NCBI GenBank assembly: GCA_963791285.1 | Contig: CAWBSC010000023.1 | Location: 399,767-463,766, forward strand | Direction: 5' to 3' | From: an uncultured delta proteobacterium | GTDB taxonomy: Bacteria; Desulfobacterota; Desulfobacteria; Desulfobacterales; SpSt-501 | Length of the DNA: 64,000 nucleotides | Shown: positions 1 to 31,145 of the stretch, in pieces | Position numbering within the stretch: the stretch's first letter is position 1 | How the letters are laid out: the number at the start of each line of letters is the position of its first letter | Made by a program: the position numbers and the translations under genes | Notes under the pieces: generated by a model | The model's input: only the letters and a program-made list of their open reading frames with translations | Told to the model about the DNA's origin: nothing | Databases searched by the model: none

Positions 1-1
1 G

Positions 2-1750
2 CTCAAGTCGATCGACAGCGCGATCGCGTCCTACCGCAAGGCGTCCGAACTGGCCCCGGGCCGGGCGGACATCCTCTACAACCTCGGCCTCGCCTGCCAG
101 GAAACCGGTCGCAACGGCGAGGCCATCGCCTGCTACCGCCGGGCCCTCGACGCCCGCCCGGATTTCGTGGAGGCGCACCACAACCTGGGGATTGCGCTGC
201 AGGAGGCCGGAGAGCTCGACGCGGCCGCGGACGCCTACGGCCATGCGCTCGCCCACCGCCCCGACTACGCCGAGACGCACTACAACCTCGGCCGCCTGCG
301 CCACCTCCAGCACCGCCTGCCCGAGGCGGTGGCGTCCTACGCTGAGGCGCTCCGCCATCGTCCCGACCACCACCAGGCGTGCAACAACACCGGCAAGGCC
401 TGCCAGGACCAGGGGCGGATCGAGGCCGCCATCGCGTGGTACCGCCGAACCCTGAGCCTGAAACCGGACTCCGCCGAGGCGCGCTTCAACCTGGCCACCG
501 CACAGCTGCTGAACGGGGAATACGAGGAGGGCTGGCAGAACTACGAGGCGCGCTGGGCACAATCCGACTGGCGGCGGTTCTACCCTCGTCGTCTGCCGCA
601 GCCCGCGTGGGACGGCGGGCCGCTCGACGGCAAAACCATCCTGGTGCACTCGGAGCAGGGGCTGGGAGACATGCTCCAGTTCGCGCGCTACCTCCCCATG
701 GTCAAGGCGCAGGGCGGCCGTGTCGTGTTCGAAACCCGAGCCGCCTTGATCGAGCTGTTCCGCGGCTGGGCCTGCCTGGACGACGTCGTGCCGATCACTC
801 CACCGGAAGCGGAGCTTAAGATAGAATTCGACGTCTATGCACCTCTGCTCAGCCTGCCGCGCCTGTTCGGCACGGTCCTGGACTCCATCCCGCGCCGGAT
901 TCCCTATGTGGCCGCAGATCCTGGGCGGGTCTCGGCCTGGGCCCCCCGCATCCAGGGCGATGACTTGCGGGTCGGACTGGTCTGGGCCGGGACGGCCACC
1001 GATCCGCGCCGCGCGACGCCCCTGGCCTGGTTCGCCCCGTGGTCGACCATCCCCGGCGTGCGGCTGTTCGGACTCCAGAAGGGACCCGCGGCGGACCTGC
1101 TGGAACGCGAAGGCCCGCCGCCGGGGATGACGATCGACAACCTCGGGCCCGAGTTCGGGGACTTCGCCGATACGGCGGCGGCCATCGCTCACCTGGACCT
1201 GGTGGTGTCCATCGACACGTCGGTCGCCCACCTGGCCGGCGCCATGGGCAAACCCGTCTACCTGCTCCTGCCCCATGTGCCGGATTGGCGCTGGCTGCTC
1301 GACCGCACGGCCAGCCCCTGGTACCCGACCATGCGGCTCATGCGGCAGGACTCGCCCGCGGACTGGGCGGCCCCCATGACCCGGGCGGCCCGGGGGATCG
1401 ACACCCTGGCGCGCAGCCTCGCGCTCGCACGGTCGGCCTCCGGAGATGACGGCCTCCAGGCTGGGGCCGCGCACTTCCACAAGCGGGGCGATGCGGTCGA
1501 GGCCACGCTTTTCTACCAGCGCCTGCTGCGCGAGCGCCCCGATCACCCGGAAGGCCTGCACGGCCTGGGGCTGCTGGCCTACCAGGCGGGGAACCCCGAG
1601 CGTGCGGTCGATCTCATCGGGCGTGCCGCGGCGCTCTCCCCTGCCGTCGATCGCTACCACTACCATCTCGGCCTCGCGCTCGCGGCCGTGCAGCGTCACG
1701 ACGCAGCGGAAAAGGCCTTCTCGGTGGCGTACGCTCTCAGCCCGGGATAG
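2..1750 (+). CDS. TPR-repeat protein with central GT9 (heptosyltransferase-like) glycosyltransferase domain; 5' end lies outside the window
   Basis: The frame of ORF 167..1750 stays open to the window start (LKSIDSAIASYRKASELAPG...). TPR-type repeats occur at both ends. Central motifs LVHSEQGLGDMLQFARYLP and SIDTSVAHLAGAMGKPVYLL are typical of the GT9 fold. Confidence 0.8.
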   Translation, partial: LKSIDSAIASYRKASELAPGRADILYNLGLACQETGRNGEAIACYRRALDARPDFVEAHHNLGIALQEAGELDAAADAYGHALAHRPDYAETHYNLGRLRHLQHRLPEAVASYAEALRHRPDHHQACNNTGKACQDQGRIEAAIAWYRRTLSLKPDSAEARFNLATAQLLNGEYEEGWQNYEARWAQSDWRRFYPRRLPQPAWDGGPLDGKTILVHSEQGLGDMLQFARYLPMVKAQGGRVVFETRAALIELFRGWACLDDVVPITPPEAELKIEFDVYAPLLSLPRLFGTVLDSIPRRIPYVAADPGRVSAWAPRIQGDDLRVGLVWAGTATDPRRATPLAWFAPWSTIPGVRLFGLQKGPAADLLEREGPPPGMTIDNLGPEFGDFADTAAAIAHLDLVVSIDTSVAHLAGAMGKPVYLLLPHVPDWRWLLDRTASPWYPTMRLMRQDSPADWAAPMTRAARGIDTLARSLALARSASGDDGLQAGAAHFHKRGDAVEATLFYQRLLRERPDHPEGLHGLGLLAYQAGNPERAVDLIGRAAALSPAVDRYHYHLGLALAAVQRHDAAEKAFSVAYALSPG

Positions 1751-1921
1751 AAGGACGCACGCGTCAACCGCGAACGCGCCCGCCGATAGATCCGCATCCT
1801 CCGCGCAGCGGCTCCATGCACCGGACGCACCGGTCACGCCGGCATTCTTCCAGAAGAATTTACCGTGTTCAAACGCGGGCAGAGCGGGATTGGGCGAAAC
1901 GCGGGTTACGGAGGATCGGAA

Positions 1922-3292
1922 TCAGCAGGAGGGAACGGCAGAGAGGGTTTTCGAGGCGGAAGCGTGGGGGGCGGACTGGCGCGGGGAACATCTCATCAGG
2001 CGGCGGCCGAGCTCTTCCTGCCCCGCGGCCGCCAGGGTTCGGGCCAGCTCGCGAAAGGAAACCGGCAGCATTGGGCCCAGGGCGGTTGCGCCTATCGGCT
2101 CGAGGGTCGCTGCGCATCTCTCCGCCTCGGCGTCGCAGGCGTAGGCGGCCGCCAGCAGGAAACGGGCGTGGACGTAGTCGGGAGCCTGCGCTATCAGGGG
2201 CTCCAGCACCGCGACGGCCCGGGCAGCGCCGCCGCAATGCAGCGCGGCCAGCGCCAGGTTGACGTGGGCCTCACGCATCGTGGGCGCGCACCGCAGGGCC
2301 GATTCGGCGCACCGCACGGCCTCGTCGTAGCGGCCCAGCTGCAGGCAGGCGGCGCCCATGTTCACGTAGGCTTCCGGTGAATCGGGGTGGCCCTTTAAAA
2401 AGCGGCCCCAGAGGTCGACCGAGTCCGCGTGGCGGCCCATCCGCGCGGCCTGGATGGCCGCCTCGCGCAGGCTTGCGGGCCGGTCGGTCGGCTCCTGGAG
2501 TTTCCGCCTTTCGAGCTCCGAGTAGGTCCGGGTCTTGCGCAGGGCCTGCTCGGCCTGCAGGGGCCCATAGTGGTGAACCTGCAGCTCGCATGCCTGAATG
2601 GGAATGCCCGCCTCTCTCAGGCTGTGCTCGACGAGCTCATGGACGGGGTGGCGGAACGCGACCCCCGGGGTTCTGGGAAACACCCTCACCTTCTCGCTCG
2701 GGAACCAGCCGGCGCCCGCCTCCTGCTCCGCGTACTCACCCGTGTTGGGCCGCCATCCGACGGTGTTGAGCTCGGAGGTGTAGTTGCGGGTCCGCACGGT
2801 GAACGCAGACGTCGGGGGACCGGCAACGATCTCGCGAAAGCGGCCGTAATCCTGCGGGGAGACGACTTCATCCCCGTCCAGCACGAGGATCCAGTCGCCG
2901 GACGCCTTGGAGATCGAGGCATTGCGCGCCTCGGAGAAATCGTCGCGCCACGGATGCTCGTAGACCCGGGCGCCGAACGCCCGGGCGATGTCCGCCGAGC
3001 GGTCCCGGGACCCGGTGTCGACCACGACGATTTCCTCCACGATCGGCTTGGCGCTGCGCAGGCACCGCGCCAGGTGGTCCGCTTCGTTTTTGACAATCAT
3101 GCACAGCGAGACGCAGGGGGGGCGCAGGCAGGCGGGCGGCCGCAGTTTCGAACGCACCGCCAGCGCCGCGTCGAGCAGGCCGTCATCGATTTCGAAATCC
3201 ACCATGGCCGACTCGATCTCAGTCATGGCGGATTCAAACCTCTCCCGACGCAGGAGCATCTCGATAAGCAGAAAGCGCAGCCGACGATTCAT
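1922..3292 (-). CDS. Family 2 glycosyltransferase with C-terminal TPR repeats
   Basis: 456-aa ORF. GT2 core VSLCMIVKNEADHLARCL...VVVDTGSRDRS...LVLDGDEVV, followed by TPR-like repeats. The start lies 4 nt after the upstream stop (operon packing). Confidence 0.85.
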   Translation of the reverse strand: MNRRLRFLLIEMLLRRERFESAMTEIESAMVDFEIDDGLLDAALAVRSKLRPPACLRPPCVSLCMIVKNEADHLARCLRSAKPIVEEIVVVDTGSRDRSADIARAFGARVYEHPWRDDFSEARNASISKASGDWILVLDGDEVVSPQDYGRFREIVAGPPTSAFTVRTRNYTSELNTVGWRPNTGEYAEQEAGAGWFPSEKVRVFPRTPGVAFRHPVHELVEHSLREAGIPIQACELQVHHYGPLQAEQALRKTRTYSELERRKLQEPTDRPASLREAAIQAARMGRHADSVDLWGRFLKGHPDSPEAYVNMGAACLQLGRYDEAVRCAESALRCAPTMREAHVNLALAALHCGGAARAVAVLEPLIAQAPDYVHARFLLAAAYACDAEAERCAATLEPIGATALGPMLPVSFRELARTLAAAGQEELGRRLMRCSPRQSAPHASASKTLSAVPSC

Positions 3293-3296
3293 GCCG

Positions 3297-5105
3297 TCAC
3301 CATGTCAGGCGCTGCTCAAGGTGCCCCAGGAGCTGAAGGGCTCTGGCGGATGTCGTGTGATGCGCCAGCAGATGGCGGTAACCGGCCGCGGCCACCTGCT
3401 CGGCCTCTTCGACGTGCGCACGGTAATACTGCAGCTGGTCCTCCAGCTCTGGCAGGTCATCAAAAAAAACTGCCGATTGTCCATCGATGAAATTGCTCGG
3501 AATACGGATCGGCGGATGTTCAGCCAGCAGCATGGCCCCATGCGCAGGAATTTCCCAATACCGAACGGTGTCAAACCCGGTTCCGAAAAACGAGAGCCCG
3601 ATTCGAGCCGAACGCAACCGCTCGGCGTACTCCGCCTGAGGGTAGCACGCTTGCAAGTGCCGGCCCAGCATGCGCTCGATCGCGGCCAGGTAAAGGGGAC
3701 GCAACCCCCAAACCGGCTTTCCCGCCCAGAACACGTCGAGGTTGCGTTGGATCGGTCCCCGCACCGGAATCAGGGTGTCGGGGTAGCCGAACGGCAACGG
3801 AATGGTTTTAGACCCGTAGTCTACTCCAGCGAGCATCTCCCGTTTGAACAGCACATCGATCGGCTTGCCGCCGATGTAGTTCGAAATCACATCGACGGGC
3901 GTGCAGCAGTTGTCCCACGTGTCGTAAACCACCAACGGCAGATCGCGGCCAGCCTCCATGATCCGCTGCACATCGGACATCCGCGTCATTTGCACCACAT
4001 CGGCATACAGAATCAGGTCAAAACGCCGGTCTCGGAGTTCCGATAGGATGGATACCAGAGGCACCGGTGACGACGCATGGTCGAAGACGCAAGGATAGTT
4101 GTGAGCGTTGTCCGCAGCACGGCCGTGAAGCATCGGCTTCCAGGGGTACTCCACAACGTTTTCTGAACCGATGGCCCGCACCAGAGCATCGAAAATAGTG
4201 TCCATCCCATAATCCGAATGATCATGGGTCAGAACGAGAATCCGCGGCGCCCTTCTGACCCCGCTCCACGTGACCGCATTCTCCATAGCCGACGGGCTGT
4301 CGCATGCCTGCGGCAATGCATCGAGATACCGTTGGCATTCAGGGTCGGGCGAGACATGAAGAACCGATCTCAACGTGCGCCGAGCCATGGCAGTATTGCC
4401 TATGTGCCGCCAGAACCCCGCCTCGCGGCAATACGCTGGATGGTGGTGCGGCAGCGCCGATGTGATCTGTGCGAACTCGCGCCGAGCTTTGAAATAAAGT
4501 TTGTGCAATGGCTGATCGGCCGGCAGTGCCTGCTGCCAGGCCAGATATAGCTTCTGTTTTTCGGCTGCCACATAAGCCAAGTTCTCGTCGGTGTGGAGCA
4601 GCTCGAACGGGATGTCCTCGAGGACCGCTATGGCATGTTGGAATTGTCCATCCCGTGCAAGCGCACCAGCATGCGCGGCGGGGTTGTAGGCGCAACGAAC
4701 CGCGACAACCCTTATAGCGGCAGCCTCTCCGGCCTCCGGTTGCAGGTGCACGGTTTTGAACCGCAACAGCCCATGCCGGTGCAGCAGCAGGTCCAATTCG
4801 CTCAGGAGGTCCCCTTCGGCGCCGTTCCGGGTGACAAAGCTTATCCTCCCGTTAGGGCCCAGGAACTGAAGCAAATAGGCCAAGTCTATGCGACGGTCGA
4901 CTCTGCCGGTTACGGGGTCGATCACCATGCAATCGAATTCGGCGTTACCCAACGCCGCGGAGCCGGCGGCCGGCATGCTTGGCAGGTACCAAACCCGGCC
5001 CCTCTGAGCGTATTGCTGCCTGCAGGCACCGGACGGGACGGCGCCGATATGCAAAATGCGGTCGATGAAAGGGGGGATCATTTCACCGCAGGCATTTGCC
5101 GTCAT
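3297..5105 (-). CDS. CgeB-like glycosyltransferase (Glyco_trans_1_2 type C-terminal domain) with N-terminal degenerate methyltransferase-like region
   Basis: 602-aa ORF. The C-terminus (GTGFDTVRYWEIPAHGAMLLAE...FFDDLPELEDQLQYYRAHVEEAEQVAAAGYRHLL) matches the pattern I recall for the CgeB/DUF3880 family. Confidence 0.7.
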   Translation of the reverse strand: MTANACGEMIPPFIDRILHIGAVPSGACRQQYAQRGRVWYLPSMPAAGSAALGNAEFDCMVIDPVTGRVDRRIDLAYLLQFLGPNGRISFVTRNGAEGDLLSELDLLLHRHGLLRFKTVHLQPEAGEAAAIRVVAVRCAYNPAAHAGALARDGQFQHAIAVLEDIPFELLHTDENLAYVAAEKQKLYLAWQQALPADQPLHKLYFKARREFAQITSALPHHHPAYCREAGFWRHIGNTAMARRTLRSVLHVSPDPECQRYLDALPQACDSPSAMENAVTWSGVRRAPRILVLTHDHSDYGMDTIFDALVRAIGSENVVEYPWKPMLHGRAADNAHNYPCVFDHASSPVPLVSILSELRDRRFDLILYADVVQMTRMSDVQRIMEAGRDLPLVVYDTWDNCCTPVDVISNYIGGKPIDVLFKREMLAGVDYGSKTIPLPFGYPDTLIPVRGPIQRNLDVFWAGKPVWGLRPLYLAAIERMLGRHLQACYPQAEYAERLRSARIGLSFFGTGFDTVRYWEIPAHGAMLLAEHPPIRIPSNFIDGQSAVFFDDLPELEDQLQYYRAHVEEAEQVAAAGYRHLLAHHTTSARALQLLGHLEQRLTW

Positions 5106-5151
5106 AATTTCCTGCCCTAAAGCGGGTCGTGGCGTACGGAGATCGCACGGA

Positions 5152-6582
5152 TCATGCGGCCTTGGAGGCGGCTGCCAATCGGTCCAGTTCCCGGCCGGCT
5201 TCGACGTTCCAGGGCTCGATTTCGAGCATGCGCTCGAAGAAGGTCCGCCCGTCCTCCGGTCGGCCGAGCGCCAGACAGAGCCTGCCCGTCGCGTGGAGGG
5301 TTTCCAGGTCCTCCGGGTAGGCGCTCAGGACGTCCACGTAGATCTTCAGGGCGTCTTCGTAGCGTCCGAACCCGACCCAGTAGCAGTCCGCCAGGTTCTT
5401 CTGAAACGTCAAGTTGGACGGTTCGAGGCGCGCGGCCTTCTCGTAACGCTCCAGGGCCTCCTGCCGGTCGCCGGCCTGGTAGGCGAGCACCCCCAGGTCG
5501 TTGTGGGCCAGCGCGAAGCCCGGGTGCGCGGCGACCATCTCGCGCAGCCGGTCCCGTCCGGCGCCCGTATCGCCGGCGGCGATCAGGCGCGCGGCGTCCT
5601 CATAGCTCGCCTGGGGTGAGGCGACGGCTGCGGCCGTATCGACCCGCGGCGCCCGGAGCTGGTTCAATGCGTCGTGGGCATCGGTGTTCCAGGGTTCGAG
5701 CTCCAGAATCCGTTCGTAGAACACCCGGGCGTCCTCACCCTGCCCTAATGCGGCGCAGACACGGGCCACTGCGGTGAGCGCTTCGATGTCCTGAGGGGAG
5801 TCCTCCAGCACACGGACATAGATCTTCAGGGCGTCCTCGGTGCGGCCCTGCTCGACCCAGTAGAAATCGGCGAGGTTCTTCTGGAATGTGCCGTTGCCCG
5901 GCTCCAGCCGGGCGGCCTGCTCGTAGTGCCGCAGCGCCCGGTCCTTGTCCCCCGCCTGGTAGCACATCACCCCGAGATCGTTGTGGGCCGCCGCGAATTC
6001 GGGATGCGCGGCAACCAGTTGCTCCAAGCGGGTTCGCGCCGCCGCCGTGTCGCCGCCCTGGACGAGGCGCTGCGCGTCGGCGTATAGCTCCTCCGCACCG
6101 CTCCGGCCGGCAGCCCCGCCCAGGATTCGCTGGATCTTCGCGAGGTTCTCGTTCGCTTCGGTGTTCCAGGGCTCGACGTCCAGCACCTTGCGATAGTGCA
6201 CGGCTGCTTCGGCGAAGCGCTGCAGGCTGACGTGAAGATGGGCCGCGGTCATCTGGATCGTCGTGTCGTTCGGCCGGATGGCCAGGATCCGGACGTACAG
6301 CGCGAGGGCGTCTTCGACACGCGAGAGCTCCACGTGGTAGTAATCGGCCAGGCTGGTCAGGAAGGTTGCGTCGCCGGGGTTTAGGTGGGCGGCGCGCTCG
6401 AAATGCCCCAGCGCCTTCTGCCCGTCCCCGGACCGGTAGTACAGCCCGCCGAGGTCGTGGTGCGCATCGGCGAAATCCGGGAAGGAACGCACCACGTTCC
6501 GCAGCGCCTGAAACGCGTCTTCGGGGCGAGCGGCCTGGAGCAGGGGCCGCATGTTCTCGTACATGTGTTCGATCGGCAGCAT
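5152..6582 (-). CDS. TPR-repeat protein built from three tandem ~160-aa modules
   Basis: ORF 5152..6687. The preferred start is ATG 6582, preceded by AGGAGG (revcomp of tcctaagggg region). Three colinear modules each end in ...EPWNTxA (HDLGGLYYRSGD..., HNDLGVMCYQAGD..., HNDLGVLAYQAGD...). Confidence 0.8.
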   Translation of the reverse strand: MLPIEHMYENMRPLLQAARPEDAFQALRNVVRSFPDFADAHHDLGGLYYRSGDGQKALGHFERAAHLNPGDATFLTSLADYYHVELSRVEDALALYVRILAIRPNDTTIQMTAAHLHVSLQRFAEAAVHYRKVLDVEPWNTEANENLAKIQRILGGAAGRSGAEELYADAQRLVQGGDTAAARTRLEQLVAAHPEFAAAHNDLGVMCYQAGDKDRALRHYEQAARLEPGNGTFQKNLADFYWVEQGRTEDALKIYVRVLEDSPQDIEALTAVARVCAALGQGEDARVFYERILELEPWNTDAHDALNQLRAPRVDTAAAVASPQASYEDAARLIAAGDTGAGRDRLREMVAAHPGFALAHNDLGVLAYQAGDRQEALERYEKAARLEPSNLTFQKNLADCYWVGFGRYEDALKIYVDVLSAYPEDLETLHATGRLCLALGRPEDGRTFFERMLEIEPWNVEAGRELDRLAAASKAA

Positions 6583-6679
6583 GTCTTGCCTCCTAAGGGG
6601 TTTGGCATCGCGCATACGGATGCGCGGGGAGTGGTAACGCTGGGACAGACTACGGATGCGCCTGCGGTGCATGGGAGAT

Positions 6680-13436: not shown

Positions 13437-13470
13437 GCACCTTCATCTTTCGTTACATCGACGTGGCGCA

Positions 13471-14586: not shown

Positions 14587-14696
14587 CCTACCTCCCAGAG
14601 ACCTATTGCGTGCCGTCTATAACCACCATCGCCAAATTGGGGTGGCACATGGGTGAGGGGGACCCAACAGACCAGTAGTCCGCCTCGCCCCAACCG

Positions 14697-15509: not shown

Positions 15510-15523
15510 CGGTCGCCGGATTC

Positions 15524-17260: not shown

Positions 17261-17283
17261 GTTCCCGCACCCTCCACGGTGCT

Positions 17284-18471: not shown

Positions 18472-18483
18472 GGCCGTCTCCCC

Positions 18484-20136
18484 TCAGACCGGCATGCCGA
18501 ATTCTACCGCGTACGAACGCCACTCCGGATCGTCGCGTACCAGTCTTCGGTAGGTGCGCATGTTCTCCTCGATCTGCACCGCATCCGCGTTCAGCGCCCG
18601 ATAGGACTGCGCCAGATAGTAATGGCCGAAGGCATGATTGCCGTAGCGCTCGATCACTTCTTCGAAGCAGCCGGCGGCGATCCGATAATCGCCTATTTTC
18701 ATGCGCCGATTGTTGACGAAATTAACGTCGAGGTTCATGAGATAGGCGCGCCGTGAAATCTTCGCAGGTTCCAGGCCTATTTCAGGCGCGTTGAGGATGT
18801 ACTGGTTGCCCTCGATATCGCCGAGCTTCATGTTGCGCGGGATATAGCCCTTTTCAGTCGCAATGCGATACAGCTCGCTACCCCGCACCGGCGACGCCAT
18901 GGAGAACCCGCTCCAATCGAGCCCCCACTCCTTGATGCAGCGCACGGTTTGCTCGCGGTCCTCCTCACGTTCGCCTGGCAGCCCGACGACGAAATAGGCT
19001 TGCACGAAGATATCGTTTTGTTGCAGCGCCTTAACCACCGGGCCGACACGCTCCAGGCGGATCGGTTTCCTGATCACCTTGCGCACCACATGGTCCGATC
19101 CCGACTCGATGGCCAGTGGCAGGGTATCCAGTCCCGCCTGCTTCATCAGGCAGGCCATCTCGTCGTCGATGAAAACCACGGTGACCCCGTTGGGCGTCTC
19201 CAGCCGCAACTTGAATTCCGCGAGCCGGCGGAACAGCTCCTTGGCTCGCCGCATATCCATCAGCAGTTGGTCATCATAGATCGTCAACACGTTCATGCCA
19301 TACCGGTCGACTCGAAACCGCACATGCTCGATGATGGCATCGACCTCGGCATAGCGCATGCTCTTGCCGTGCAGCGAGGGCTCGGCGCAGAACACGCACT
19401 TGAAAGGGCAGCCGCGTGAGGTGACGAGAAAAAACTGGCGCACATCGGTCTCGTTTCGATAGGAGGCGAACGGGGAGAATGCCTCTTTCATGCTGTAGAC
19501 CTTGCGGTCGATTAAGTCATAGTCGACCGCGATGACATCGTTGAGACGTGAAACATACACGCTGGTGGGTTTGACGCCCCGCGATAACGAAGCGCGGGTC
19601 ACCCATGGCGCGCCGGCGAACGCGTCGTCCAAGCTGGGCGAATTGACCACCTTCAGCATCGCCGCTTCGCCTTCGGAGTAGCACAACACATCGATATCCG
19701 GCTGGTCGGCGAGGATCTCCTCGTACGCGGTGGTTGCCGCTGCACCGCCGATGATGACTCGTGTCGCCGCCGAAAATGACTTGGCCTGGCCGGCGATTGC
19801 GGCAACGTGTTTATAAGACTGGTCAAACATCATTGAGATGCCGACGATGTCCGGCCGCAACTCGGCCATCGCCGCGTCGAGCGCCTGTGCATACTGGTCC
19901 GAAGAGTAGCGATTGAGATCGACAATTCGCAGATCGGGAACGGCATGGGCCCGGCGGCGCAAATACGTCGCAATCGACAACACGCCATATGGAAAGGCCA
20001 GGAAGCTGCGGGTCTTGCCCTGAGTGGCATCCTTCTTCTTTTCCAGGTAAGGCAATATCACGAACAGCAGCGACCGGCGCGGGGCGCGGCCCGCAACCGA
20101 TACCGTCGGATCGCAATGCGTTGGGTTCACATCCAT
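18484..20136 (-). CDS. B12-binding-domain radical SAM enzyme (class B), paralog 2
   Basis: ORF 18484..20181. The preferred start is ATG 20136, preceded by AGGAG. Motif TSRGCPFKCVFCAEP. Colinear with paralog 1 over its full length. Confidence 0.85.
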   Translation of the reverse strand: MDVNPTHCDPTVSVAGRAPRRSLLFVILPYLEKKKDATQGKTRSFLAFPYGVLSIATYLRRRAHAVPDLRIVDLNRYSSDQYAQALDAAMAELRPDIVGISMMFDQSYKHVAAIAGQAKSFSAATRVIIGGAAATTAYEEILADQPDIDVLCYSEGEAAMLKVVNSPSLDDAFAGAPWVTRASLSRGVKPTSVYVSRLNDVIAVDYDLIDRKVYSMKEAFSPFASYRNETDVRQFFLVTSRGCPFKCVFCAEPSLHGKSMRYAEVDAIIEHVRFRVDRYGMNVLTIYDDQLLMDMRRAKELFRRLAEFKLRLETPNGVTVVFIDDEMACLMKQAGLDTLPLAIESGSDHVVRKVIRKPIRLERVGPVVKALQQNDIFVQAYFVVGLPGEREEDREQTVRCIKEWGLDWSGFSMASPVRGSELYRIATEKGYIPRNMKLGDIEGNQYILNAPEIGLEPAKISRRAYLMNLDVNFVNNRRMKIGDYRIAAGCFEEVIERYGNHAFGHYYLAQSYRALNADAVQIEENMRTYRRLVRDDPEWRSYAVEFGMPV

Positions 20137-20161
20137 GCTGCACTCCTGTCCCCGCGCCGGA

Positions 20162-21478
20162 TCATGGCGCGCCGCAACCATCGCGCGTTCGGCTCAGTGC
20201 TTCGGCCCATTGCGCCAGCTTCGGGTCGGTGGGAAAGTAATGGTGGAATTGAAAGGCGCTGCCCTTGGTCTCTTCGAAGGCGTCGTGCGGCATGGTTGGG
20301 AGCGCTTTAATCGACAGCGTTCCGTCGTCATTGAAAATGCGGCCCGATTCCTGGCACGCCAGGAACCAGTTGTGGGGCTGATCCCCCAACACGCTTCGAA
20401 AATCGATCCGAGCGCGTGATCGCGACACCAGGTTCTGATAGGTGACGATGAATGCGTCGGCCAGACGCGCGCGGGTGAAACGCTGCCGGACATTCGACGC
20501 TGCCCGTCGAGCCATGGCCTGACGTTCGGCGGGGGTGCGAGATAACCACCGGATCGCCTCCGCGAACTCGCGTCGGGACGACACCACCATCCCCGTCACA
20601 CCGTGAGAGACGATCGCGGTCTCGGCCGCGTTGTCGAGGACAACGGGCACCACGCCCATCGCCATGGCCTCGATCAGCGCATTCTCGGCCGTGCCATAGT
20701 GCCGAGGGTTGAGCAAGTAAGCCAGGACATCCATCTGGCCGAGTTCGGCGGCCACATCGGTGACGTATCCCCGGAACTCGATCAGTTGCGGACGCCCCGC
20801 AGCGACACACTGGCGATGCAACTGCGCACGGTTCAGCTCGTCGCCCACCATCCGCACTCGAAATTCGGGGTCGCGTACGGCGGCTAACCAGTCGACGTAC
20901 TCGGGGTGCAACTTCGAGAAGTTCAAGCTGCCGAGGTAACCGGTCACCATGCGACGAGTTGGGTGGGCCTGTCGCCACAGGGGTGCCGGCAGATCTTCAC
21001 AGCCGACTCCACTGGAAATGACCGTGATCCGCCCCTCGGCCGCCGATCTTGTCCCGCGGATATTGGGAGCACCCAGCGAGCAAGGCGACGTGAGCACGAA
21101 CTGTGATGCCGCATCGGCCAGCCCGGCCGGTATCACCGGATTGACCAGACCGGACTGATGGCACCAGACCAGCAGCCTTGCCGTCAGAGCATGCAACCCG
21201 CACAGGGTCTCCAGAGTAGCTGGATGGTTCCACCACTCCACCTGGACGATGTCTGCCGTCTCGATGCGCCGCCTCAGCTCCTCACGGCCCGGCCGAACGA
21301 CAACGTCGCAGCCCGCGTCACGGATGGGCCGAACGAATTGGGTCTTTTCCGGACTCTCCAGACAAACGAACGAATGCCGAATGTCGCTACCGGCTGCGGC
21401 CGTTGCCCTGACCAGATTCGACAGCGCCCTGCCCACGCCACCGCCCAGATGCGGCGTCAAATGCAAAACGGTAATCAC
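20162..21478 (-). CDS. GT4-type (GT-B) glycosyltransferase with extra C-terminal domain
   Basis: 438-aa ORF. MITVLHLTPHLGGGVGRAL N-terminus; E-x7-E region GTAENALIEAMAMGVVPV. ATGA overlap with the upstream gene. Confidence 0.8.
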   Translation of the reverse strand: MITVLHLTPHLGGGVGRALSNLVRATAAAGSDIRHSFVCLESPEKTQFVRPIRDAGCDVVVRPGREELRRRIETADIVQVEWWNHPATLETLCGLHALTARLLVWCHQSGLVNPVIPAGLADAASQFVLTSPCSLGAPNIRGTRSAAEGRITVISSGVGCEDLPAPLWRQAHPTRRMVTGYLGSLNFSKLHPEYVDWLAAVRDPEFRVRMVGDELNRAQLHRQCVAAGRPQLIEFRGYVTDVAAELGQMDVLAYLLNPRHYGTAENALIEAMAMGVVPVVLDNAAETAIVSHGVTGMVVSSRREFAEAIRWLSRTPAERQAMARRAASNVRQRFTRARLADAFIVTYQNLVSRSRARIDFRSVLGDQPHNWFLACQESGRIFNDDGTLSIKALPTMPHDAFEETKGSAFQFHHYFPTDPKLAQWAEALSRTRDGCGAP

Positions 21479-22554
21479 GCAGAAACCGTCGAGATACGGT
21501 TCACGCCGGAGGTAACGCCTGGAACCGACTCGAGTTCGCCGGGTGCATACACTTTAAACTTCGCCAGCAGGCCTTCCCTGTACGCGTCAATATTGTCCGG
21601 CATGCCATGAGATAATTGTCCGCACTGACCGCACACCGGATTCTGCTTGCGCTTCCCCTGCAGATGCTGCTTGCGCAGGGCATTCATCCGATCACCATGC
21701 CAGATGGAAGGGATGGACTGGGTCCTGGCATCGCCGATGACCAGCTTCCGTCCCCAGTCCAGAAAGCAGGAACTCACCAAGCCATCCGCATTCACCGACA
21801 TCGAATAGAAAATGTAGGGGCAAGTGTCGGTGAAGGTGATCGGCTGCTTGTAAATCCCCTCGATGATTTTGGCGCCCGTGTACGCCTCGACATCGAACCC
21901 CGGCCAGCATGGAGCGAAATTCTCTATGAAGATGCGGTCACAGGAATCGCCGAAGGTATCCAGGAACTCCTGTCGTTGGGACGCAGAGATCAGATCGCCG
22001 GGAATCTTGATCACCACTTCGCAGCCGTTCCGGTTGGCATACAGCCATCGCACATTTTTGACAAAGCGGCCGAAATCGAAATCAAAGCCGGTGAACTTCA
22101 GGTAGTGCTCACGATTCATCCCGTCGACTGAAATATTGATCTTGTCGAGACCCGCGTCGAGGACGGGCCCAAGCCGCTCCGGCGTTATGAGTGAGCCGTT
22201 TGTGGTGGTGTCGACATACTCGACATGGCCGCTGGCCTTGGCGTACGCGATCATCTTCGCCAGGTTCGGGTTGAGGAAGGGCTCGCCGTCCTTGTACAAG
22301 CGCAGCACCTTTATCGGCTTTTCAAACGCGCCCAGGTCATCAACCACCTTCTGAAGAACCGGGAGTTTCATCACCCCTTGATAACGACCGGTTTCATCGA
22401 TCAAGTCTCGGTGCCCTGTCGGGCAAAATGAACAGTGAAAGTTGCAGACACTCGCCGGATCGGCGAAGACCACGAAGGGAGTGGTCAACGGGATCACGTC
22501 CTGCAACGGGGTGCGGCCTTCAAGATTTATTCCAGGTTTCAGCTTGGCTTTCAT
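21475..22554 (-). CDS. Radical SAM protein with SPASM/twitch-like C-terminal Cys cluster
   Basis: 359-aa ORF. CNFHCSFCP radical SAM motif. C-terminal Cys-rich region (TCPYIF...SSCFLDW...CGQCGQ). Confidence 0.85.
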   Translation of the reverse strand: MKAKLKPGINLEGRTPLQDVIPLTTPFVVFADPASVCNFHCSFCPTGHRDLIDETGRYQGVMKLPVLQKVVDDLGAFEKPIKVLRLYKDGEPFLNPNLAKMIAYAKASGHVEYVDTTTNGSLITPERLGPVLDAGLDKINISVDGMNREHYLKFTGFDFDFGRFVKNVRWLYANRNGCEVVIKIPGDLISASQRQEFLDTFGDSCDRIFIENFAPCWPGFDVEAYTGAKIIEGIYKQPITFTDTCPYIFYSMSVNADGLVSSCFLDWGRKLVIGDARTQSIPSIWHGDRMNALRKQHLQGKRKQNPVCGQCGQLSHGMPDNIDAYREGLLAKFKVYAPGELESVPGVTSGVNRISTVSA

Positions 22555-23494
22555 ATCTCACAGGCTGGTCAGCGACGGGGAACCGTCCGGATTCATCTGG
22601 TTTCGTGAATATGGTTTCCGCCATCCCCTCTTCGAGGGTATAGCGCGGCTGCCACCCCAGATTTTGCAACTGGGTATTCGCCCCGCAGATCATGGGCGGT
22701 TCCCATGCGCGATACGGCAGCGCACCGAACTGCACCAATTCCGAGCGACCGATCAGGGTGGCGATGGTCGTCACCACTTGACGAACGGACACCGGACGTC
22801 CGGACGAAACATTGAAGACGCCGCCGGCCCCCTTTTCCAACAGGACGCAGAAGGCTGCGGCCACATCGACGACGTAAATGTAATCCCGCACCTGCTCGCC
22901 GGCTGTTGTGAGAAACGGAGCGCCCCGCGTCAGCGCCCGGATGGCGGCAGGTGGCAGCCGGCGTTCGTCCTCCTGGGGACCATACGGGTAAAAGATCCGC
23001 CCCCAGGCAAACTGAATACCGGCCCGCGCGGCGATCTGCTGGCCCATCAGGCAGCAGGAAAGCTTGGCCGCCGCATATAGACTTTGGGGCCGGAGGGGGC
23101 TGTCCTCGTTCAGGCAGCCCGCGGCCGTGTCGTACTCGAAGCAGGTTCCCGCGCCCACGATCCGGCGGCAGCCCGCCCGGATCAGCTCGCCGAAGAGGGA
23201 TAGGCTCCCGGTCAACGAATGGATATTTTCCGCAGCATTCAGGTAGGCGCCGGGTTCGGCATGCCAGGCCAAGTGAACGCAACCCTCGGGCCGGACGTCC
23301 GACAGGGCGCGTCGCAGCGCTTCCGCGTCGCCGAGATCTCCGGGCATGACCCGGATCGACCGGCGCACCCCGCGCAGGCGATGCAAGTCATTCCCGGGCC
23401 TTGCCAGGACGACGACCTCGTGCCCCCTCGCCAGCAGGGCCCGGGTCAGGTGCGCCCCGATGAAGCCGGAGGCACCGGTCACGAACACCCTCAT
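22520..23494 (-). CDS. NAD-dependent epimerase/dehydratase-family enzyme (likely sugar-nucleotide 4-ketoreductase/epimerase)
   Basis: ORF 22520..23560. The start is taken at MRVFVTGASGFIGAHL (ATG 23494, ATGA overlap with the upstream stop). YAAAK catalytic motif. Confidence 0.85.
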   Translation of the reverse strand: MRVFVTGASGFIGAHLTRALLARGHEVVVLARPGNDLHRLRGVRRSIRVMPGDLGDAEALRRALSDVRPEGCVHLAWHAEPGAYLNAAENIHSLTGSLSLFGELIRAGCRRIVGAGTCFEYDTAAGCLNEDSPLRPQSLYAAAKLSCCLMGQQIAARAGIQFAWGRIFYPYGPQEDERRLPPAAIRALTRGAPFLTTAGEQVRDYIYVVDVAAAFCVLLEKGAGGVFNVSSGRPVSVRQVVTTIATLIGRSELVQFGALPYRAWEPPMICGANTQLQNLGWQPRYTLEEGMAETIFTKPDESGRFPVADQPVRYESQAETWNKS

Positions 23495-24027: not shown

Positions 24028-24033
24028 GCCGGG

Positions 24034-24810
24034 CTACCACACCTTCCACTCGGCGCGGCCGGATTCCCATAGTCGGTTGAGGTCTTCCTTGTCGCGCAGC
24101 GCATCCATACACTTCCAGAACCCGTGGTGCTTGTAGGCCATCAGCTGCTGGTCCCGCGAAAGGCTCTCCAGCGGGTCCTGTTCCCACATTTTCTGGTCCG
24201 AGTCCGGCGGCAAATAGGAGAACACGTCCGGCCGCAGGACGAAAAAACCGCCGTTGATCCAGCCGCCGTCGCCGACGATTTTTTCCTTGAAGCTGGATAC
24301 GCGTTCGTCGTCGTCCAGCGTCAGCAGGCCGAACCGCCCCGCCGGCTGGACGGCCGTCACCGTGGCGATTTTCCCGTGTCTGCGGTGAAACGCGATCAAC
24401 TCTTCCAGGCGGATGTCGGCGATGCCGTCGCCGTAGGTCAGCAGGAACTCTTCGTTGCCGACGTAGTGTTGGACTCGCTTCAGGCGGCCGGCCGTCCGAG
24501 TATGAAGCCCGGTTTCCACCAACGTCACCCGGAAATTCTCCGTATTGGCGTGATAGATTTCAAAGCTGTTGGTTTTCAGATTGAAGGTGACGTCCGAATT
24601 GTAGACGTAGTAGTTCATGAAGTACTCTTTGATCATGTACCCCTTGTAGCCCAGGCAGATGATGAAGTCGGTATGCCCCTGCGCGGCGTAAATTTTCATG
24701 ATGTGCCAGAGCATGGGTTTTTCGCCGATCTCGATCATCGGCTTGGGTTTCAGCCATGATTCTTCCGATATGCGAGTACCGAGTCCGCCGGCAAAAATGA
24801 CGACTTTCAT
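24034..24810 (-). CDS. rfbF: Glucose-1-phosphate cytidylyltransferase
   Basis: 258-aa ORF. MKVVIFAGGLGTRISEESWLKPKPMIEIGEKPMLWHIMKIY is a near-textbook RfbF N-terminus. Confidence 0.9.
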   Translation of the reverse strand: MKVVIFAGGLGTRISEESWLKPKPMIEIGEKPMLWHIMKIYAAQGHTDFIICLGYKGYMIKEYFMNYYVYNSDVTFNLKTNSFEIYHANTENFRVTLVETGLHTRTAGRLKRVQHYVGNEEFLLTYGDGIADIRLEELIAFHRRHGKIATVTAVQPAGRFGLLTLDDDERVSSFKEKIVGDGGWINGGFFVLRPDVFSYLPPDSDQKMWEQDPLESLSRDQQLMAYKHHGFWKCMDALRDKEDLNRLWESGRAEWKVW

Positions 24811-24870
24811 GTGATCTCCTGCTGGTCCTGTCGGTGCTTCAGGATATTCTGCGGCCTTGGTCCGCGCGGT

Positions 24871-26073
24871 CTATATTGCGATCGGCCTCGGCCCGCGACA
24901 CCGCGTGCGATCGGCCGGTTTGGGCGTCTCGACGACCGGACGCCTGCGACCCCGATGCTCAGCCGCGGGAGCGGCCGCCCCCATTGCTTTTTCTTCGACC
25001 TGTCGAATCTGCTCCCGACAATACGGGTACATGTCCTTTGCCGGGTGACCGGAGTAATAGGCTTTATACCAGTCGGTCGTCATGCGCAGGCATTCGTCGA
25101 CAGTGAGGACGCTGCGCCAATCGAGATCAGCATGGGCCTTGTCGCAGTTCAGCTTGAGACGCATCGCTTCGTGGGGGGCCTGCGGATCGGAGAGGTCATC
25201 CCAACATCCCTTACCCCAGCAGTCGATGAGCCGGTCGGCCATCGCGGCCACCGTCAGGGCGCTGCGGCTCTCGGGGCCGAAATTCCAGGCGCCGGAATAG
25301 GCCGCGGGGTCTCGCCAGAGGGCGGCGCCGAGGCGCAGATAACCGTGAAGGGGTTCCAGAACGTGCTGCCAGGGCCGGATGGCGTTGGGGTTGCGAATGC
25401 CGATGGCCCGCCCGCTGCTGAGGGCACGGATGCAATCGGGGACGAGGCGGTCTGCACCCCAGTCGCCGCCGCCGATGACATTCCCCGCCCGCGCGGATGC
25501 GGCTCCGATGCACGCGACCCCGGGCCGTGAACCGGAAGGGCGCGGGGAAAAAAACGATTTCAGATACGCCTTGAAGACCAGTTCCGCGCACCCCTTGGAT
25601 GCGCTGTAGGGATCATGGCCCCCCAGCGGGTCGTTCTCCCGGTAGCCCCAGGCCCACTCCTGGTTTTCATAACACTTGTCGCTGGTCACATTGACCATGA
25701 CTCTGACGCTGGCGGTTCGGCGGACAGCCTCCAGCACGTTCACCGTGCCGCCGACGTTCGTGTCGAAGGTCGTTTTCGGCTCATCGTATGAAAGACGAAC
25801 AATGGGCTGGGCGGCCAAGTGAAAGACCACCTCCGGCTGATAGGTAGTGAACGCCTCCATCAGCCCGTTCAAATTTCGAATGTCTCCGTAAAGGTGCGTT
25901 ATTTTCTCGTGCAGCCTCGTTGCCATAAAATTGCTGGGGCTGCTCGGGGGCGCGAGTGAATAGCCGATGACGTCCGCACCCAATTCCTTCAGCCAGATCG
26001 CCAGCCAGGACCCTTTGAAACCGGTGTGGCCCGTGATGAGCACCGTCTTGTCTTTGTAGCTGTCAGCGAACAC
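24871..26073 (-). CDS. rfbG: CDP-glucose 4,6-dehydratase (with ~40-aa low-complexity C-terminal tail)
   Basis: 400-aa ORF. KTVLITGHTGFKGSWLAIWL and YSASKGCAEL motifs. Confidence 0.9.
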   Translation of the reverse strand: MFADSYKDKTVLITGHTGFKGSWLAIWLKELGADVIGYSLAPPSSPSNFMATRLHEKITHLYGDIRNLNGLMEAFTTYQPEVVFHLAAQPIVRLSYDEPKTTFDTNVGGTVNVLEAVRRTASVRVMVNVTSDKCYENQEWAWGYRENDPLGGHDPYSASKGCAELVFKAYLKSFFSPRPSGSRPGVACIGAASARAGNVIGGGDWGADRLVPDCIRALSSGRAIGIRNPNAIRPWQHVLEPLHGYLRLGAALWRDPAAYSGAWNFGPESRSALTVAAMADRLIDCWGKGCWDDLSDPQAPHEAMRLKLNCDKAHADLDWRSVLTVDECLRMTTDWYKAYYSGHPAKDMYPYCREQIRQVEEKAMGAAAPAAEHRGRRRPVVETPKPADRTRCRGPRPIAI

Positions 26074-26512
26074 GAACGTGTTTTCCCCTTGGGCTGCCGG
26101 TTTGAAACGACTCGTCGATCTGCGTCAGATCCCCCTCCGTGTTTGGCGGCGCGAGGGACTGAGTGGGGGCCGACGCCGCGCTCTCGAAATAGCGATTGAC
26201 CTCGTGCTTGACCAGTTCGGCGATTCGCGCGGCAAGGTGCTCCAGTGAAGGCGCAGGTGACATCGCTGCGTCCTTCCGGCCCGACGATATCCGCACATCG
26301 ATTTCATCCAGGCTCAGGCCGTCCGCCTTTAGGCGCTTGATCAGCGCGATCACCGCGACATGCTCGGGGGAGTACCGCCTCTGGCCGCCTTTGCTGCGAT
26401 CGGGGAACATATGGGCTTGGAATTTTCTCTCCCAAAACCGCAGCGTGGACTTGGACACCCCGCACTGCGCGCTGACCTGCTGGATGGTGAATAACTGAGA
26501 ATTGGGTTTCAT
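26063..26512 (-). CDS. MerR-family transcriptional regulator
   Basis: ORF 26063..26602. The start is taken at MKPNSQLF (ATG 26512). HTH: FTIQQVSAQCGVSKSTLRFWERKF...RRYSPEHV. Its 3' end overlaps the rfbG start by 11 nt. Confidence 0.75.
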   Translation of the reverse strand: MKPNSQLFTIQQVSAQCGVSKSTLRFWERKFQAHMFPDRSKGGQRRYSPEHVAVIALIKRLKADGLSLDEIDVRISSGRKDAAMSPAPSLEHLAARIAELVKHEVNRYFESAASAPTQSLAPPNTEGDLTQIDESFQTGSPRGKHVRVR

Positions 26513-26835
26513 CTGAATGATCGATTTTCCGGGAGGTGTGGGATGCCAGGGCATGAGGTCGCGAGCCGGGAATATGGCTCCGCCCCTTCGATTACATCCC
26601 AAGGCGGATTTTCGGGCGTGAACTTTAACTTCCGGTTCAACTTAGCAACATATATGCCATGGACTTCCGCAAAAATTTTTATGTTTATTTTCAGAGTATT
26701 GAACGTGGTTTCACGAGGATAACGTGATCGGAAGTCAAGTCGCTGACGTTCAATCTTCAACCACATGCGCTGCAAGTTTGACGGTCCAAAATCGGGCCGG
26801 CGCCTAAACCTTTCCCCGGCACGGGCGATATTCAT

Positions 26836-28826: not shown

Positions 28827-28879
28827 GGGGTTCCCCGGATCGGTTTCCCGGCAGCGTCGCGGCCCCGGCGGGGTGCGCG

Positions 28880-31127: not shown

Positions 31128-31145
31128 ATGTCGATCCGGCTTTAT

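Follow-up and report, generated by a model that had tools for sequence, protein, structure and literature searches.

Most of what is known about the O-glycosylation of flagellin in the cytoplasm comes from a few pathogens and from Caulobacter, where usually one to a few sugars are added; rhamnose-type 6-deoxyhexoses and methylated sugars occur in several flagellin glycans. The islands responsible in Pseudomonas, Burkholderia, Aeromonas, Campylobacter and Clostridioides adjoin flagellin, are mostly 5–20 kb long (~50 genes in Campylobacter) and combine soluble transferases, nucleotide-sugar enzymes and methyltransferases in a strain-variable set with no lipid-carrier machinery. Two kinds of enzyme bearing tetratricopeptide repeats (TPR) are the nearest points of comparison for the present work. 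GmaR, the flagellin O-GlcNAc transferase of Listeria, consists of a glycosyltransferase (GT) domain, TPRs, a linker and an anti-repressor domain (PMC9638930), and the FlmG class is defined by an N-terminal TPR and a C-terminal GT domain (PMC7591256). Here we describe a gene island at the left end of a 64,000-nucleotide stretch of DNA (the window) from an uncultured delta proteobacterium of the Desulfobacterales (contig CAWBSC010000023.1, positions 399,767 to 463,766). We think it probable, on balance, that these 26.5 kb are the right-hand part of a larger island, at least 40 kb long, whose enzymes O-glycosylate flagellin in the cytoplasm.

The first line of evidence is the last gene of the island's minus-strand operon (1922–3292), whose best PDB match outside the TPRs is GmaR itself (22ao_A, E = 2e-27, residues 59–246). 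Identity to GmaR is high across the nucleotide-binding region and the DxD motif of this GT2 (GT-A) domain, which is kept (..DWILVLDGDE.. here, ..DWIVAIDADE.. in GmaR); the next matches are the peptide S-glycosyltransferase SunS (1e-12) and polysaccharide GT2 enzymes (~1e-4). As in GmaR, the protein is soluble and TPRs follow the catalytic domain (Pfam TPR_16, TPR_14, TPR_19, TPR_2 and TPR_1, residues 279–391). Unlike GmaR, which has 637 residues, it ends at residue 456 with no domain after the TPRs, and the linker and the anti-repressor domain that binds MogR are missing; therefore no MogR-type regulation is expected, and as far as regulation goes the protein cannot count as a GmaR ortholog. 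The settings differ too, in that GmaR is encoded in a flagellar operon and adds a single GlcNAc, whereas the gene here is the last of 18 in an island with many further transferases. Its sequence makes the product a candidate flagellin-directed transferase.

The second line of evidence comes from gene neighbourhoods. Using an alignment of six orthologs of 1922–3292 we scanned metagenomes and obtained 80 loci, in which flagellin genes were sought within 10 kb (tblastn, E<1e-10) with B. subtilis Hag and E. coli FliC as probes. A flagellin gene was present at 20 of these 80 loci (16 of 49 where at least 5 kb of flank was available), compared with none of 87 other loci and none in the window (1.48 Mb in all; Fisher p ~1e-7); the comparison set is imperfect, five of its loci sharing the island core, and the matches from the scan double as the positive control for the probe. 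The loci of the 20 closest full-length relatives (38–51% identity) were flagellin-negative at first look, and the flagellin found there is of a divergent type. It lies 1.5–4 kb from the GmaR-like gene at nine of the 20, most of the others ending within ~1.5 kb of that gene, and FlaF and FlbT are encoded at 12 and 11 of the 20, respectively, immediately next to the GmaR-like gene, the nine loci with flagellin being among the 12. These divergent flagellins are 270–545 aa long with a Ser/Thr-rich variable middle; they have a conserved start near 'MA(L/I)N..LT.GMR..L.SLQ' and the C-terminus '...EEGANMLMLQTRQALGTTALSLS.QAAQSVLRLF', and match Pfam Flagellin_N and, in two cases, also Flagellin_C.

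The genes of the island and its immediate flank, as recovered by profile searches of the predicted products against Pfam and NCBIfam with curated cutoffs, are listed here (SAM, S-adenosylmethionine; SDR, short-chain dehydrogenase/reductase; HTH, helix-turn-helix).

1–1750, plus strand: 3' portion of a ~700-aa TPR / GT-B (GT9-like) / TPR protein, 527 codons from 167; Pfam TPR families, Glyco_transf_9 22.6 bits
1922–3292, minus strand: GmaR-like glycosyltransferase, 456 aa, with GT2 at residues ~59–246 and TPR at ~279–391; Pfam GT2 83 bits and TPR
3297–5105, minus strand: 602-aa protein with a CgeB-like GT-B C-terminus (residues 486–593); Pfam Glyco_trans_1_2 65.5 bits
5152–6582, minus strand: TPR-only protein, 476 aa; many Pfam TPR families, up to 158 bits
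6680–7468, minus strand: GT2 glycosyltransferase, 262 aa, with an ATGA overlap with the upstream gene; Pfam GT2 75.9 bits
7465–10743, minus strand: GT4 domain (residues ~26–420), linker and GT41 domain (~685–1040), 1092 aa; Pfam Glyco_trans_1_4 71.5 bits, Glyco_transf_41 65.6 bits
10740–13436, minus strand: 898-aa protein with a GT-A-like N-terminus, class I methyltransferase-like middle and NodB-type deacetylase C-terminus; Polysacc_deac_1 81.7 bits
13471–14586, minus strand: GT2 glycosyltransferase, 371 aa; Pfam GT2 93.7 bits
14697–15509, minus strand: CmcI/rhamnosyl O-methyltransferase family, 270 aa; Pfam RMNT_CmcI 282 bits
15524–17260, minus strand: B12-binding radical SAM enzyme, 578 aa; Pfam B12-binding 54.6 bits, Radical_SAM 83.2 bits
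17284–18471, minus strand: FkbM-family methyltransferase, 395 aa; Pfam Methyltransf_21, NCBIfam fkbM_fam 47.5 bits (cutoff 37.7)
18484–20181, minus strand: second B12-binding radical SAM enzyme, 565 aa; Pfam B12-binding 60 bits, Radical_SAM 74.4 bits
20162–21478, minus strand: GT4 glycosyltransferase, 438 aa, GTG start, GTGA overlap; Glyco_trans_1_4 57.9 bits, Glycos_transf_1 49.8 bits
21475–22554, minus strand: radical SAM-SPASM enzyme, 359 aa; Pfam Radical_SAM 64.4 bits, SPASM 49.5 bits
22520–23494, minus strand: SDR-type NAD-dependent sugar epimerase/reductase, 324 aa; Pfam Epimerase 146 bits
23491–24027, minus strand: RmlC-type 4-keto-6-deoxyhexose 3,5-epimerase, 178 aa; dTDP_sugar_isom 216 bits, NCBIfam rmlC 177.5 bits (cutoff 155.75)
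24034–24810, minus strand: glucose-1-phosphate cytidylyltransferase RfbF, 258 aa; NCBIfam TIGR02623 394.8 bits (cutoff 300.25)
24871–26073, minus strand: CDP-glucose 4,6-dehydratase RfbG, 400 aa; NCBIfam TIGR02622 477.4 bits (cutoff 278.45)
26063–26512, minus strand: MerR-family HTH regulator, 149 aa from ATG 26512, first operon gene; Pfam MerR_1 69.1 bits
26644–26659, minus strand: sigma-54-type -24/-12 element TGGCATATATGTTGCT, candidate operon promoter, ~130 nt upstream of the MerR ATG
26836–28074, plus strand: divergent 412-aa protein with TPRs at residues ~80–250 and a conserved, beta-rich C-terminal domain at ~250–412; Pfam TPR

A preliminary description of this DNA had counted 18 minus-strand genes from 26512 down to 1922 plus one convergent gene, and the structure of the open reading frames (ORFs) bears this out: the 18 are codirectional and free of internal stops, all their junctions fall between -35 and +110 nt, and the plus-strand gene ending at 1750 converges on them. 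It had also reported three ATGA overlaps, of which those at 7465/7468 and 23491/23494 are correct, whereas that at 21475/21478 is actually GTGA; TTGA joins the genes at 10740/10743. Pfam agrees with its three GT2 domains (1922–3292, 6680–7468 and 13471–14586), its two GT4 domains (the N-terminal half of 7465–10743, and 20162–21478), its CgeB-like protein and its GT41 domain. Pfam and NCBIfam likewise recover the methyltransferases, the three radical SAM enzymes (two B12-binding, one SPASM) and the nucleotide-sugar pathway that it named. Two calls stand at threshold level or below: GT9 barely exceeds its cutoff (22.6 bits against 22), and the GT-A assignment (GNT-I) is weak at 16.9 bits. Three of its four TPR proteins are strong (167–1750, 1922–3292, 5152–6582), as is the TPR call for the neighbour 26836–28074, whereas the TPR in 15524–17260 is at or below the Pfam threshold, as is the weak Methyltransf_23 match of 10740–13436 (26.1 bits), a protein that also matches PDB deacetylases at E = 1e-7. 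The eighteenth gene (26063–26512) encodes the MerR-family regulator and not an enzyme. By these domain assignments the operon-like block encodes at least seven soluble glycosyltransferase domains.

The genes after the regulator encode, by family-level profile matches, a pathway from CDP-glucose to CDP-4-keto-6-deoxyglucose together with a 3,5-epimerase and an SDR. By analogy with the dTDP-rhamnose pathway, RfbF, RfbG, the RmlC-like epimerase and the SDR would produce a CDP-6-deoxy-L-hexose, and we infer that the SDR (22520–23494) is the likely 4-reductase of this branch; its ATG at 23494 gives both a canonical MRVFVTGASGFIG N-terminus and the ATGA overlap. Among the tailoring enzymes, the best NCBIfam relatives of 15524–17260 are B12-binding radical SAM methyltransferases, all under cutoff, and its product likely acts as a C-methyltransferase; the CmcI-family protein 14697–15509 reaches 74.9 bits, under cutoff, with the NCBIfam rhamnosyl O-methyltransferase profile. 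The CgeB-like protein 3297–5105 has no NCBIfam match and no PDB sequence match, and its N-terminal ~480 residues were assigned to no family, while its orthologs are 73–91% identical and keep their position in relative loci L001, L002 and L089. The TPR-only protein 5152–6582 is exactly 476 aa in L001, L002, L088 and L089, and is a candidate scaffold or acceptor-binding adaptor.

The largest protein of the operon (7465–10743) ends in a GT41 domain, the family of OGT, SPINDLY, XcOGT/TtOGT and HMW1C/NGT. The profile PF13844 scores 65.6 bits (cutoff 25) in its C-terminal half, so that the earlier GT41 assignment, like the TPR assignments, survives profile searches, and the domain aligns over both lobes to the bacterial OGTs 5DJS (residues 154–493) and 2JLB (residues 196–534) with E ~1e-16. 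Motif pairs with XcOGT preserve the family's His, Lys and nucleotide motif (RPHS/AHPT, CFKILP/SYKLNP and NGATS/NAHTT, respectively), which we take to correspond to H498 and K842 of human OGT and to the UDP-binding (H)TT motif. Unlike the OGT/SPINDLY subtype, the polypeptide has no N-terminal TPR superhelix: the GT41 domain is without TPRs of its own and is preceded by the GT4 domain, a canonical TPR-GT41 being found in relatives. To our knowledge, all characterised GT41 members glycosylate proteins. The position of this one, fused behind a GT4 domain inside a multi-transferase operon, suggests the building of a complex glycan rather than the addition of a single regulatory sugar. A search of 1.84 billion representative proteins returned many relatives of each half and few spanning both; it also contained an identical 1092-aa protein, which supports the TTG start.

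Giant fusions of 1409–2731 aa, arranged like assembly lines and ending in a GmaR-like GT2-TPR module, lie beside FlaF-FlbT-flagellin in four relative loci (L097, L098, L103 and L105); we know of no description of such proteins. In L097 (3146–9364) a 2072-aa fusion has the order GT-A-like, GT4, TPR, GT2, TPR, GmaR-like, and is colinear with 10740–13436, 7465–10743, 6680–7468, 5152–6582 and 1922–3292 of the window at 30%, 27%, 57%, 29% and 44% identity, respectively. The first of these alignments joins the N-terminal domain of 10740–13436 to the N-terminus of the fusion, and the fourth matches the TPR-only protein, over 428 aa, to the TPR linker between the GT2 and GmaR-like domains. The L097 operon is divergent from an ortholog of the TPR gene 26836–28074 and convergent on FlaF-FlbT-flagellin, and L105 (7220–11449) has an L097-like layout. 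In L098 (3341–11536) a 2731-aa protein strings together a B12-binding/radical SAM region, five GT2 domains, TPR, GT4, TPR and a GmaR-like GT2-TPR, next to two Flagellin_N proteins, FlgK, FlgN, FlgI and FlgH. The 2557-aa protein of L103 (3707–11380) comprises FkbM, GT10-like, TylF-type methyltransferase, three GT2, TPR and GmaR-like domains; its gene is preceded by a MerR-like HTH gene (52% identity to 26063–26512) and NeuB, and the locus continues with a TPR-GT9-like gene (catalytic domain 48% identical to that of the window's edge gene), FlaF, FlbT and flagellin.

Given the colinearity with L097, and the flanks of that locus and of L105, the window operon is a module split into separate genes and enlarged; elsewhere this module lies between the TPR gene on one side and flagellin on the other. 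Compared with L097 it has in addition a GT41 domain, methyltransferase and deacetylase domains, a CgeB-like protein, the whole sugar/methylation arm and the trio of genes at the left described below. Orthologs of the bounding gene 26836–28074 hold the same divergent position in L090, L097 and L105 (73%, 58% and 48% identity in the C-terminal domain), and in L091 a 70% match lies ~9 kb from the GmaR-like gene. A single-sequence AlphaFold2 (AF2) model of the protein was unusable, with a predicted local distance difference test score (pLDDT) of 46. The gene is a conserved neighbour of such islands, its product perhaps an adaptor or a regulator.

At the left edge, the frame of 167–1750 is open to the window start with no in-frame stop upstream; therefore the window start truncates the gene, whose orthologs are 665–759 aa long at 92–60% identity. 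An AF2 model of the 92% identical ortholog (P0001, pLDDT 90) shows TPRs at residues 22–288, a GT-B domain at 300–555 and a second TPR block at 585–700. In a fold search with this model the top full-length matches were SPINDLY and OGT, an architectural resemblance only, dominated by the TPRs (TM-score ~0.35). By architecture and context the protein can be likened to the FlmG class, with its N-terminal TPR followed by GT-B and with a homolog in L103 that adjoins flaF-flbT-flagellin and a NeuB gene. It differs in the extra C-terminal TPR block, and no NeuB or other pseudaminic or legionaminic acid (Pse/Leg) enzyme was found in the window with Pfam or NCBIfam; FlmG has, moreover, been described as confined to Caulobacterales.

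In relatives L004, L088 and L089, where the upstream genes are intact, three plus-strand genes form a trio, TPR-GT41 (616–722 aa), TPR (~600 aa) and TPR-GT9-like, the edge gene being the third. L001 and L002 have the first of these called only as a 226-aa GT41 fragment, scoring 166 bits, and in L003 the trio position is taken by TPR genes and a short GT9-like ORF. To the left of the trio, further GT1, GT2, CgeB-like and methyltransferase genes continue for at least 13.7 kb, and the island start at base 1 given in the preliminary description is therefore an artefact of the window. The DNA of L001 is ~95% identical to window positions 1–10016 apart from one added methyltransferase gene, and L002 is 88% identical over 12–7432 and divergent beyond. 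In another relative, with an 81% identical GyrA, a ~28-kb island of other content occupies the same chromosomal site, adjoining orthologs of 26836–28074, a 353-aa protein, DedA, RadC, GpsA and GyrA, and GC content at third codon positions in the window genes from ~13.4 to 26.6 kb is 0.71–0.80, against 0.87–0.95 in the flanks. The base composition and the different content at the same site mark the locus as a strain-variable island in a fixed chromosomal position, with a length of at least 40 kb. The additional L001 gene (487-aa Methyltransf_24, L001:12205–13668) lies between the TPR-GT9 and GmaR-like genes, where the window has a 171-nt spacer, and represents gene gain or loss within the conserved core; L001 and L002 also contain frameshifted genes.

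We suggest the following scheme. One or more TPR-bearing transferases would use their TPRs to capture freshly synthesised flagellin in the cytoplasm and would place the first sugar on Ser/Thr, the candidates being the GmaR-like GT2-TPR protein, the FlmG-like TPR-GT-B protein and the TPR-GT41 expected just left of the window. Soluble GT2, GT4, GT41 and CgeB-like enzymes would then lengthen the glycan on the protein itself, using nucleotide sugars with CDP-6-deoxy-L-hexose among them, and with the TPR-only protein probably holding the extending transferases together, and CmcI, FkbM, the radical SAM enzymes and the NodB deacetylase would tailor the sugars. FlmG and Maf-1 bind flagellin by TPR domains and Maf-2 is served by a separate adaptor, GlfM, which together give a precedent for a stand-alone TPR adaptor or scaffold. 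The glycoprotein would leave through the flagellar type III export apparatus, so that no lipid carrier, flippase or polymerase would be needed, and the arm from ~7.4 to 26 kb would be the strain-variable part that sets glycan structure. A more ambitious form of this scheme, which we hold only tentatively and regard as the less likely option, has a soluble, TPR-scaffolded line building a long heteroglycan on flagellin before export, one that would be O- and C-methylated, partly de-N-acetylated, contain 6-deoxy-L-hexose and be made with two GT41 enzymes.

Several observations weigh against flagellin as the target. Flagellar genes beside the GmaR-like gene occur in the wider subfamily but not in the window or its close relatives: there is no flagellin, FlaF, FlbT, FlgK or other flagellar gene in the 64 kb, none in the ~13.7 kb leftward of relatives L001–L004, L085, L088 and L089, and none in ~20 kb around each of the same-core loci L042 and L056 (Desulfobacterales) and L048 (Pseudomonadota). 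The proposed link is indirect and comes from homology and from synteny in other lineages. The right flank is housekeeping in character (GyrA, GpsA, RadC, Der), and the count of GT domains (at least 10, ~15 with the left arm) is higher than any characterised flagellin glycan would require. The NodB deacetylase domain and a WavE encoded in L004 are more typical of polysaccharide pathways, and a TPR-bearing capsule-polymerase multienzyme (8qoy) is also among the fold matches of the P0001 model.

The alternative that survives best, although we think it unlikely, is cytoplasmic glycosylation of a protein other than flagellin, such as a pilin, an adhesin (Sec, two-partner or type I export) or a set of intracellular proteins, with the GT41 and GT9-like enzymes acting in the manner of OGT, HMW1C or TibC. 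The intact GT41 motifs, the full TPR-GT41 gene in the left arm of relatives, and the overall resemblance of the TPR-GT-B model to SPINDLY and OGT would all suit it, as would the lack of any flagellar gene in the DNA sampled from the window's lineage. Bacterial GT41 enzymes have been reported to act on a pilin (Synechococcus Ogt, PMC9306852) and on multiple proteins (Y. pestis HmwC, PMC11329713). The nearest characterised homolog of the last operon gene is, however, a flagellin transferase, its family neighbours flagellin, FlaF and FlbT rather than pilins or adhesins, and no candidate acceptor gene (a Ser/Thr-rich or repeat protein, or a pilin) was seen in the window or the relative loci. The preliminary description had argued for a protein acceptor in the cytoplasm, naming several possible targets, and against a lipid-linked polysaccharide; this is supported, and the GmaR homology and flagellin synteny point more narrowly to flagellin as the probable target. 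Its use of TPRs with GT41 as a hallmark of protein glycosylation needs qualifying, since TPR plus GT is not by itself diagnostic, given 8qoy.

We rate as improbable a lipid-linked polysaccharide (O antigen, capsule or exopolysaccharide) built on undecaprenyl phosphate by soluble or peripheral multidomain transferases, as in pathways that depend on ABC transporters, with its initiating transferase and exporter elsewhere or past the left end. O-antigen and capsule loci often contain GT2 and GT4 enzymes, O-methyltransferases, NodB domains and a CDP-6-deoxyhexose pathway, the left boundary of the island was never reached, and WavE and 8qoy count on this side. ABC-dependent O-antigen and group 2 capsule systems in particular share the multidomain GT/methyltransferase proteins, O-methyltransferases, TPR-GT fusions and assembly on the cytoplasmic side. 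A 314-aa glycosyltransferase of the left arm, from an unannotated GT-B family with no Pfam match (best genome-collection match 53% identical, too low for this species to be among the GTDB species representatives), also occurs in many glycan loci, including those of non-motile Pelagibacter. This family is widespread, in Polynucleobacter, Hydrogenophaga, Pelagibacteraceae, Chlamydiae and Patescibacteria (loci L005–L084), and five of its loci contain island-core homologs: GmaR-like, GT41 and GT9-like in L042, L048 and L056, GT41 and GT9-like in L012, and GmaR-like and GT9-like in L068.

Against a polysaccharide stands the membrane-free character of the whole island. A Kyte-Doolittle scan (19 residues) gave segments at or above 1.6 only inside Rossmann or B12-binding domains, in agreement with the earlier statement that the products lack transmembrane stretches. 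Over the 40 kb or more of the island no ORF has two or more hydrophobic spans, and the same holds for five loci of relatives (L001–L004 and L085), scanned over ~10 kb each side of the edge gene and 13.7 kb leftward in one relative. None of the predicted products scanned in the 64 kb matched Wzx, Wzy, ABC exporter, WecA or WbaP-type families, as the preliminary description had also stated for the island, and the additional DNA of relatives, which stops short of the left boundary, holds no initiating transferase, flippase or polymerase; exporters normally lie inside polysaccharide clusters. Neither a contiguous initiating transferase, flippase or polymerase nor real transmembrane helices have thus come to light, and the GT41 and TPR assignments did not fail, these being the three findings that had been named beforehand as counting against protein glycosylation. 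ABC-dependent systems differ further from this locus in that no Wzm/Wzt, KpsMT, initiating transferase or membrane protein occurs over at least 40 kb and in the flagellar synteny of its relatives. We know of no role for GT41 in polysaccharide synthesis, the GT2 domain of 1922–3292 is far nearer to protein and peptide transferases (1e-27, 1e-12) than to polysaccharide GT2s (1e-4), and the fused miniatures adjoin flagellin genes, not exporters.

A soluble cytoplasmic or small-molecule glycoconjugate, for example a polymethylated storage or chaperone polysaccharide like the mycobacterial methylmannose (MMP) or methylglucose (MGLP) type or a glycosylated natural product, with the TPRs as scaffolds only, would fit the wholly soluble enzyme set, its richness in methylation enzymes (CmcI, FkbM, two B12-binding radical SAM proteins and a methyltransferase domain) and its many proteins without an equivalog, but seems very improbable, since no polyketide, nonribosomal peptide synthetase or ribosomally synthesized and post-translationally modified peptide precursor genes were seen, the GT41 and GmaR homology and the flagellar synteny of relatives would go unexplained, and strain-level variability of the arm suggests a surface-exposed product. 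Two other candidates were rejected: a PEP-CTERM/exosortase exopolysaccharide locus, which found only sub-threshold matches and no exosortase or membrane genes, and spore-crust-type glycosylation, for which CgeB and the CDP-glucose genes offer a conceptual parallel only.

As to how the operon might be expressed, the sigma-54-type element at 26644–26659 is the window's only match to TGGCAC-N5-TTGCW with at most one mismatch, an AT-rich tract (~26670–26720) precedes it, and no sigma-70-like site was found in 26450–26900. The element may drive the operon, the evidence being weak because 1.63 matches per window are expected by chance and only its position is suggestive. On the right flank, a perfect sigma-28 (FliA-type) consensus, TAAAG-N15-GCCGATAA (31117–31144, minus strand; 0.02 expected by chance), lies just past the radC stop and ~330 nt upstream of the DedA/VTT gene 30050–30787, after which a 353-aa gene follows; the site is suggestive of a flagellar-regulon promoter beside the island. 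The 353-aa protein (28880–29941, minus strand) has no Pfam, NCBIfam or PDB match and is 75% identical and syntenic in L090, where it and DedA are likewise island neighbours. A 114-aa His-rich ORF (28578–28922, minus strand) comes after it.

The rest of the window, from 28 to 64 kb, is unrelated and mostly concerned with housekeeping and central metabolism, encoding DedA, RadC, GpsA, GyrA, a thiolase, MgsA, Der, Hdr/Mvh-like proteins, a SerA-like dehydrogenase, major facilitator superfamily transporters and acetyl-CoA synthetase fragments. The GyrA ORF (33064–35694, minus strand, 876 aa) has a GTG start and runs ~53 residues beyond its 821–823-aa homologs, so the true start is probably downstream; the protein is 79–93% identical to homologs from metagenome-assembled genomes labelled Desulfobacterales or Deltaproteobacteria, which places the host in an uncultured lineage of the Desulfobacterota. 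An operon-like set at 41039–44913 (plus strand) encodes an FAD oxidoreductase, an MvhD/FlpD-ferredoxin fusion, 4Fe-4S proteins and a CCG-domain protein (heterodisulfide-reductase-like). Such genes typically serve energy metabolism in sulfate reducers and related bacteria, and the set has no connection with the island. Two split AMP-binding (acetyl-CoA-synthetase-like) genes on the plus strand (51578–52855/52866–53612, gap 10 nt; 55270–56424/56598–57167, gap ~170 nt) may be frameshifts, pseudogenes or assembly errors. Window GC content is ~65%, with dips to 0.57 at 14000–16000, in the variable arm around CmcI and the B12-binding radical SAM gene, and at 50000–52000, around a TetR gene and an interval of ~1 kb in which no gene was called (50604–51577).

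The preliminary description did not recognise a described system in this combination of genes; it is best seen as an expanded flagellin-glycosylation island, and one that departs from known examples. Those adjoin flagellin and are mostly smaller, whereas this one spans at least 40 kb with no flagellin seen nearby. It differs further in having a pair of GT41-domain proteins, a TPR-only protein, two B12-binding radical SAM enzymes and a 6-deoxyhexose branch that runs through CDP rather than dTDP. Literature searches turned up no paper on flagellin glycosylation in Desulfovibrio or the Desulfobacterota and none on bacterial gene clusters that include GT41. The novelty lies in the scale, in an unfused layout with separate TPR proteins, and in the presence of two GT41 modules, B12-binding radical SAM enzymes and a CDP-sugar branch, all in the Desulfobacterota. 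Should the flagellin link fail, the locus would still be a 40-kb membrane-free glycosylation system without a known acceptor.

The island touches on two general questions, namely how soluble transferases choose their acceptors and how long a glycan can grow when it is built on the protein itself. It offers a natural comparison between ~10 separate proteins with stand-alone TPR partners here and the giant fusions beside flagellin in its relatives, and this contrast of separate and fused modules makes testable predictions about complex formation and acceptor recognition. It would also place bacterial OGT-family enzymes, whose functions are mostly unknown, in a defined pathway. If the more ambitious form of our scheme is correct, GT41 enzymes would for the first time have a role in flagellin glycosylation or in a multi-step glycan-building pathway, and no earlier case would be known of a protein-linked glycan tailored by B12-radical-SAM enzymes. 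The 2000–2700-aa fusions (L097, L098, L103) would then represent this machine condensed into one polypeptide. For the Desulfobacterota, the island points to an unexplored flagellar glycan chemistry that may involve CDP-6-deoxy-L-hexose and radical-SAM methylation.

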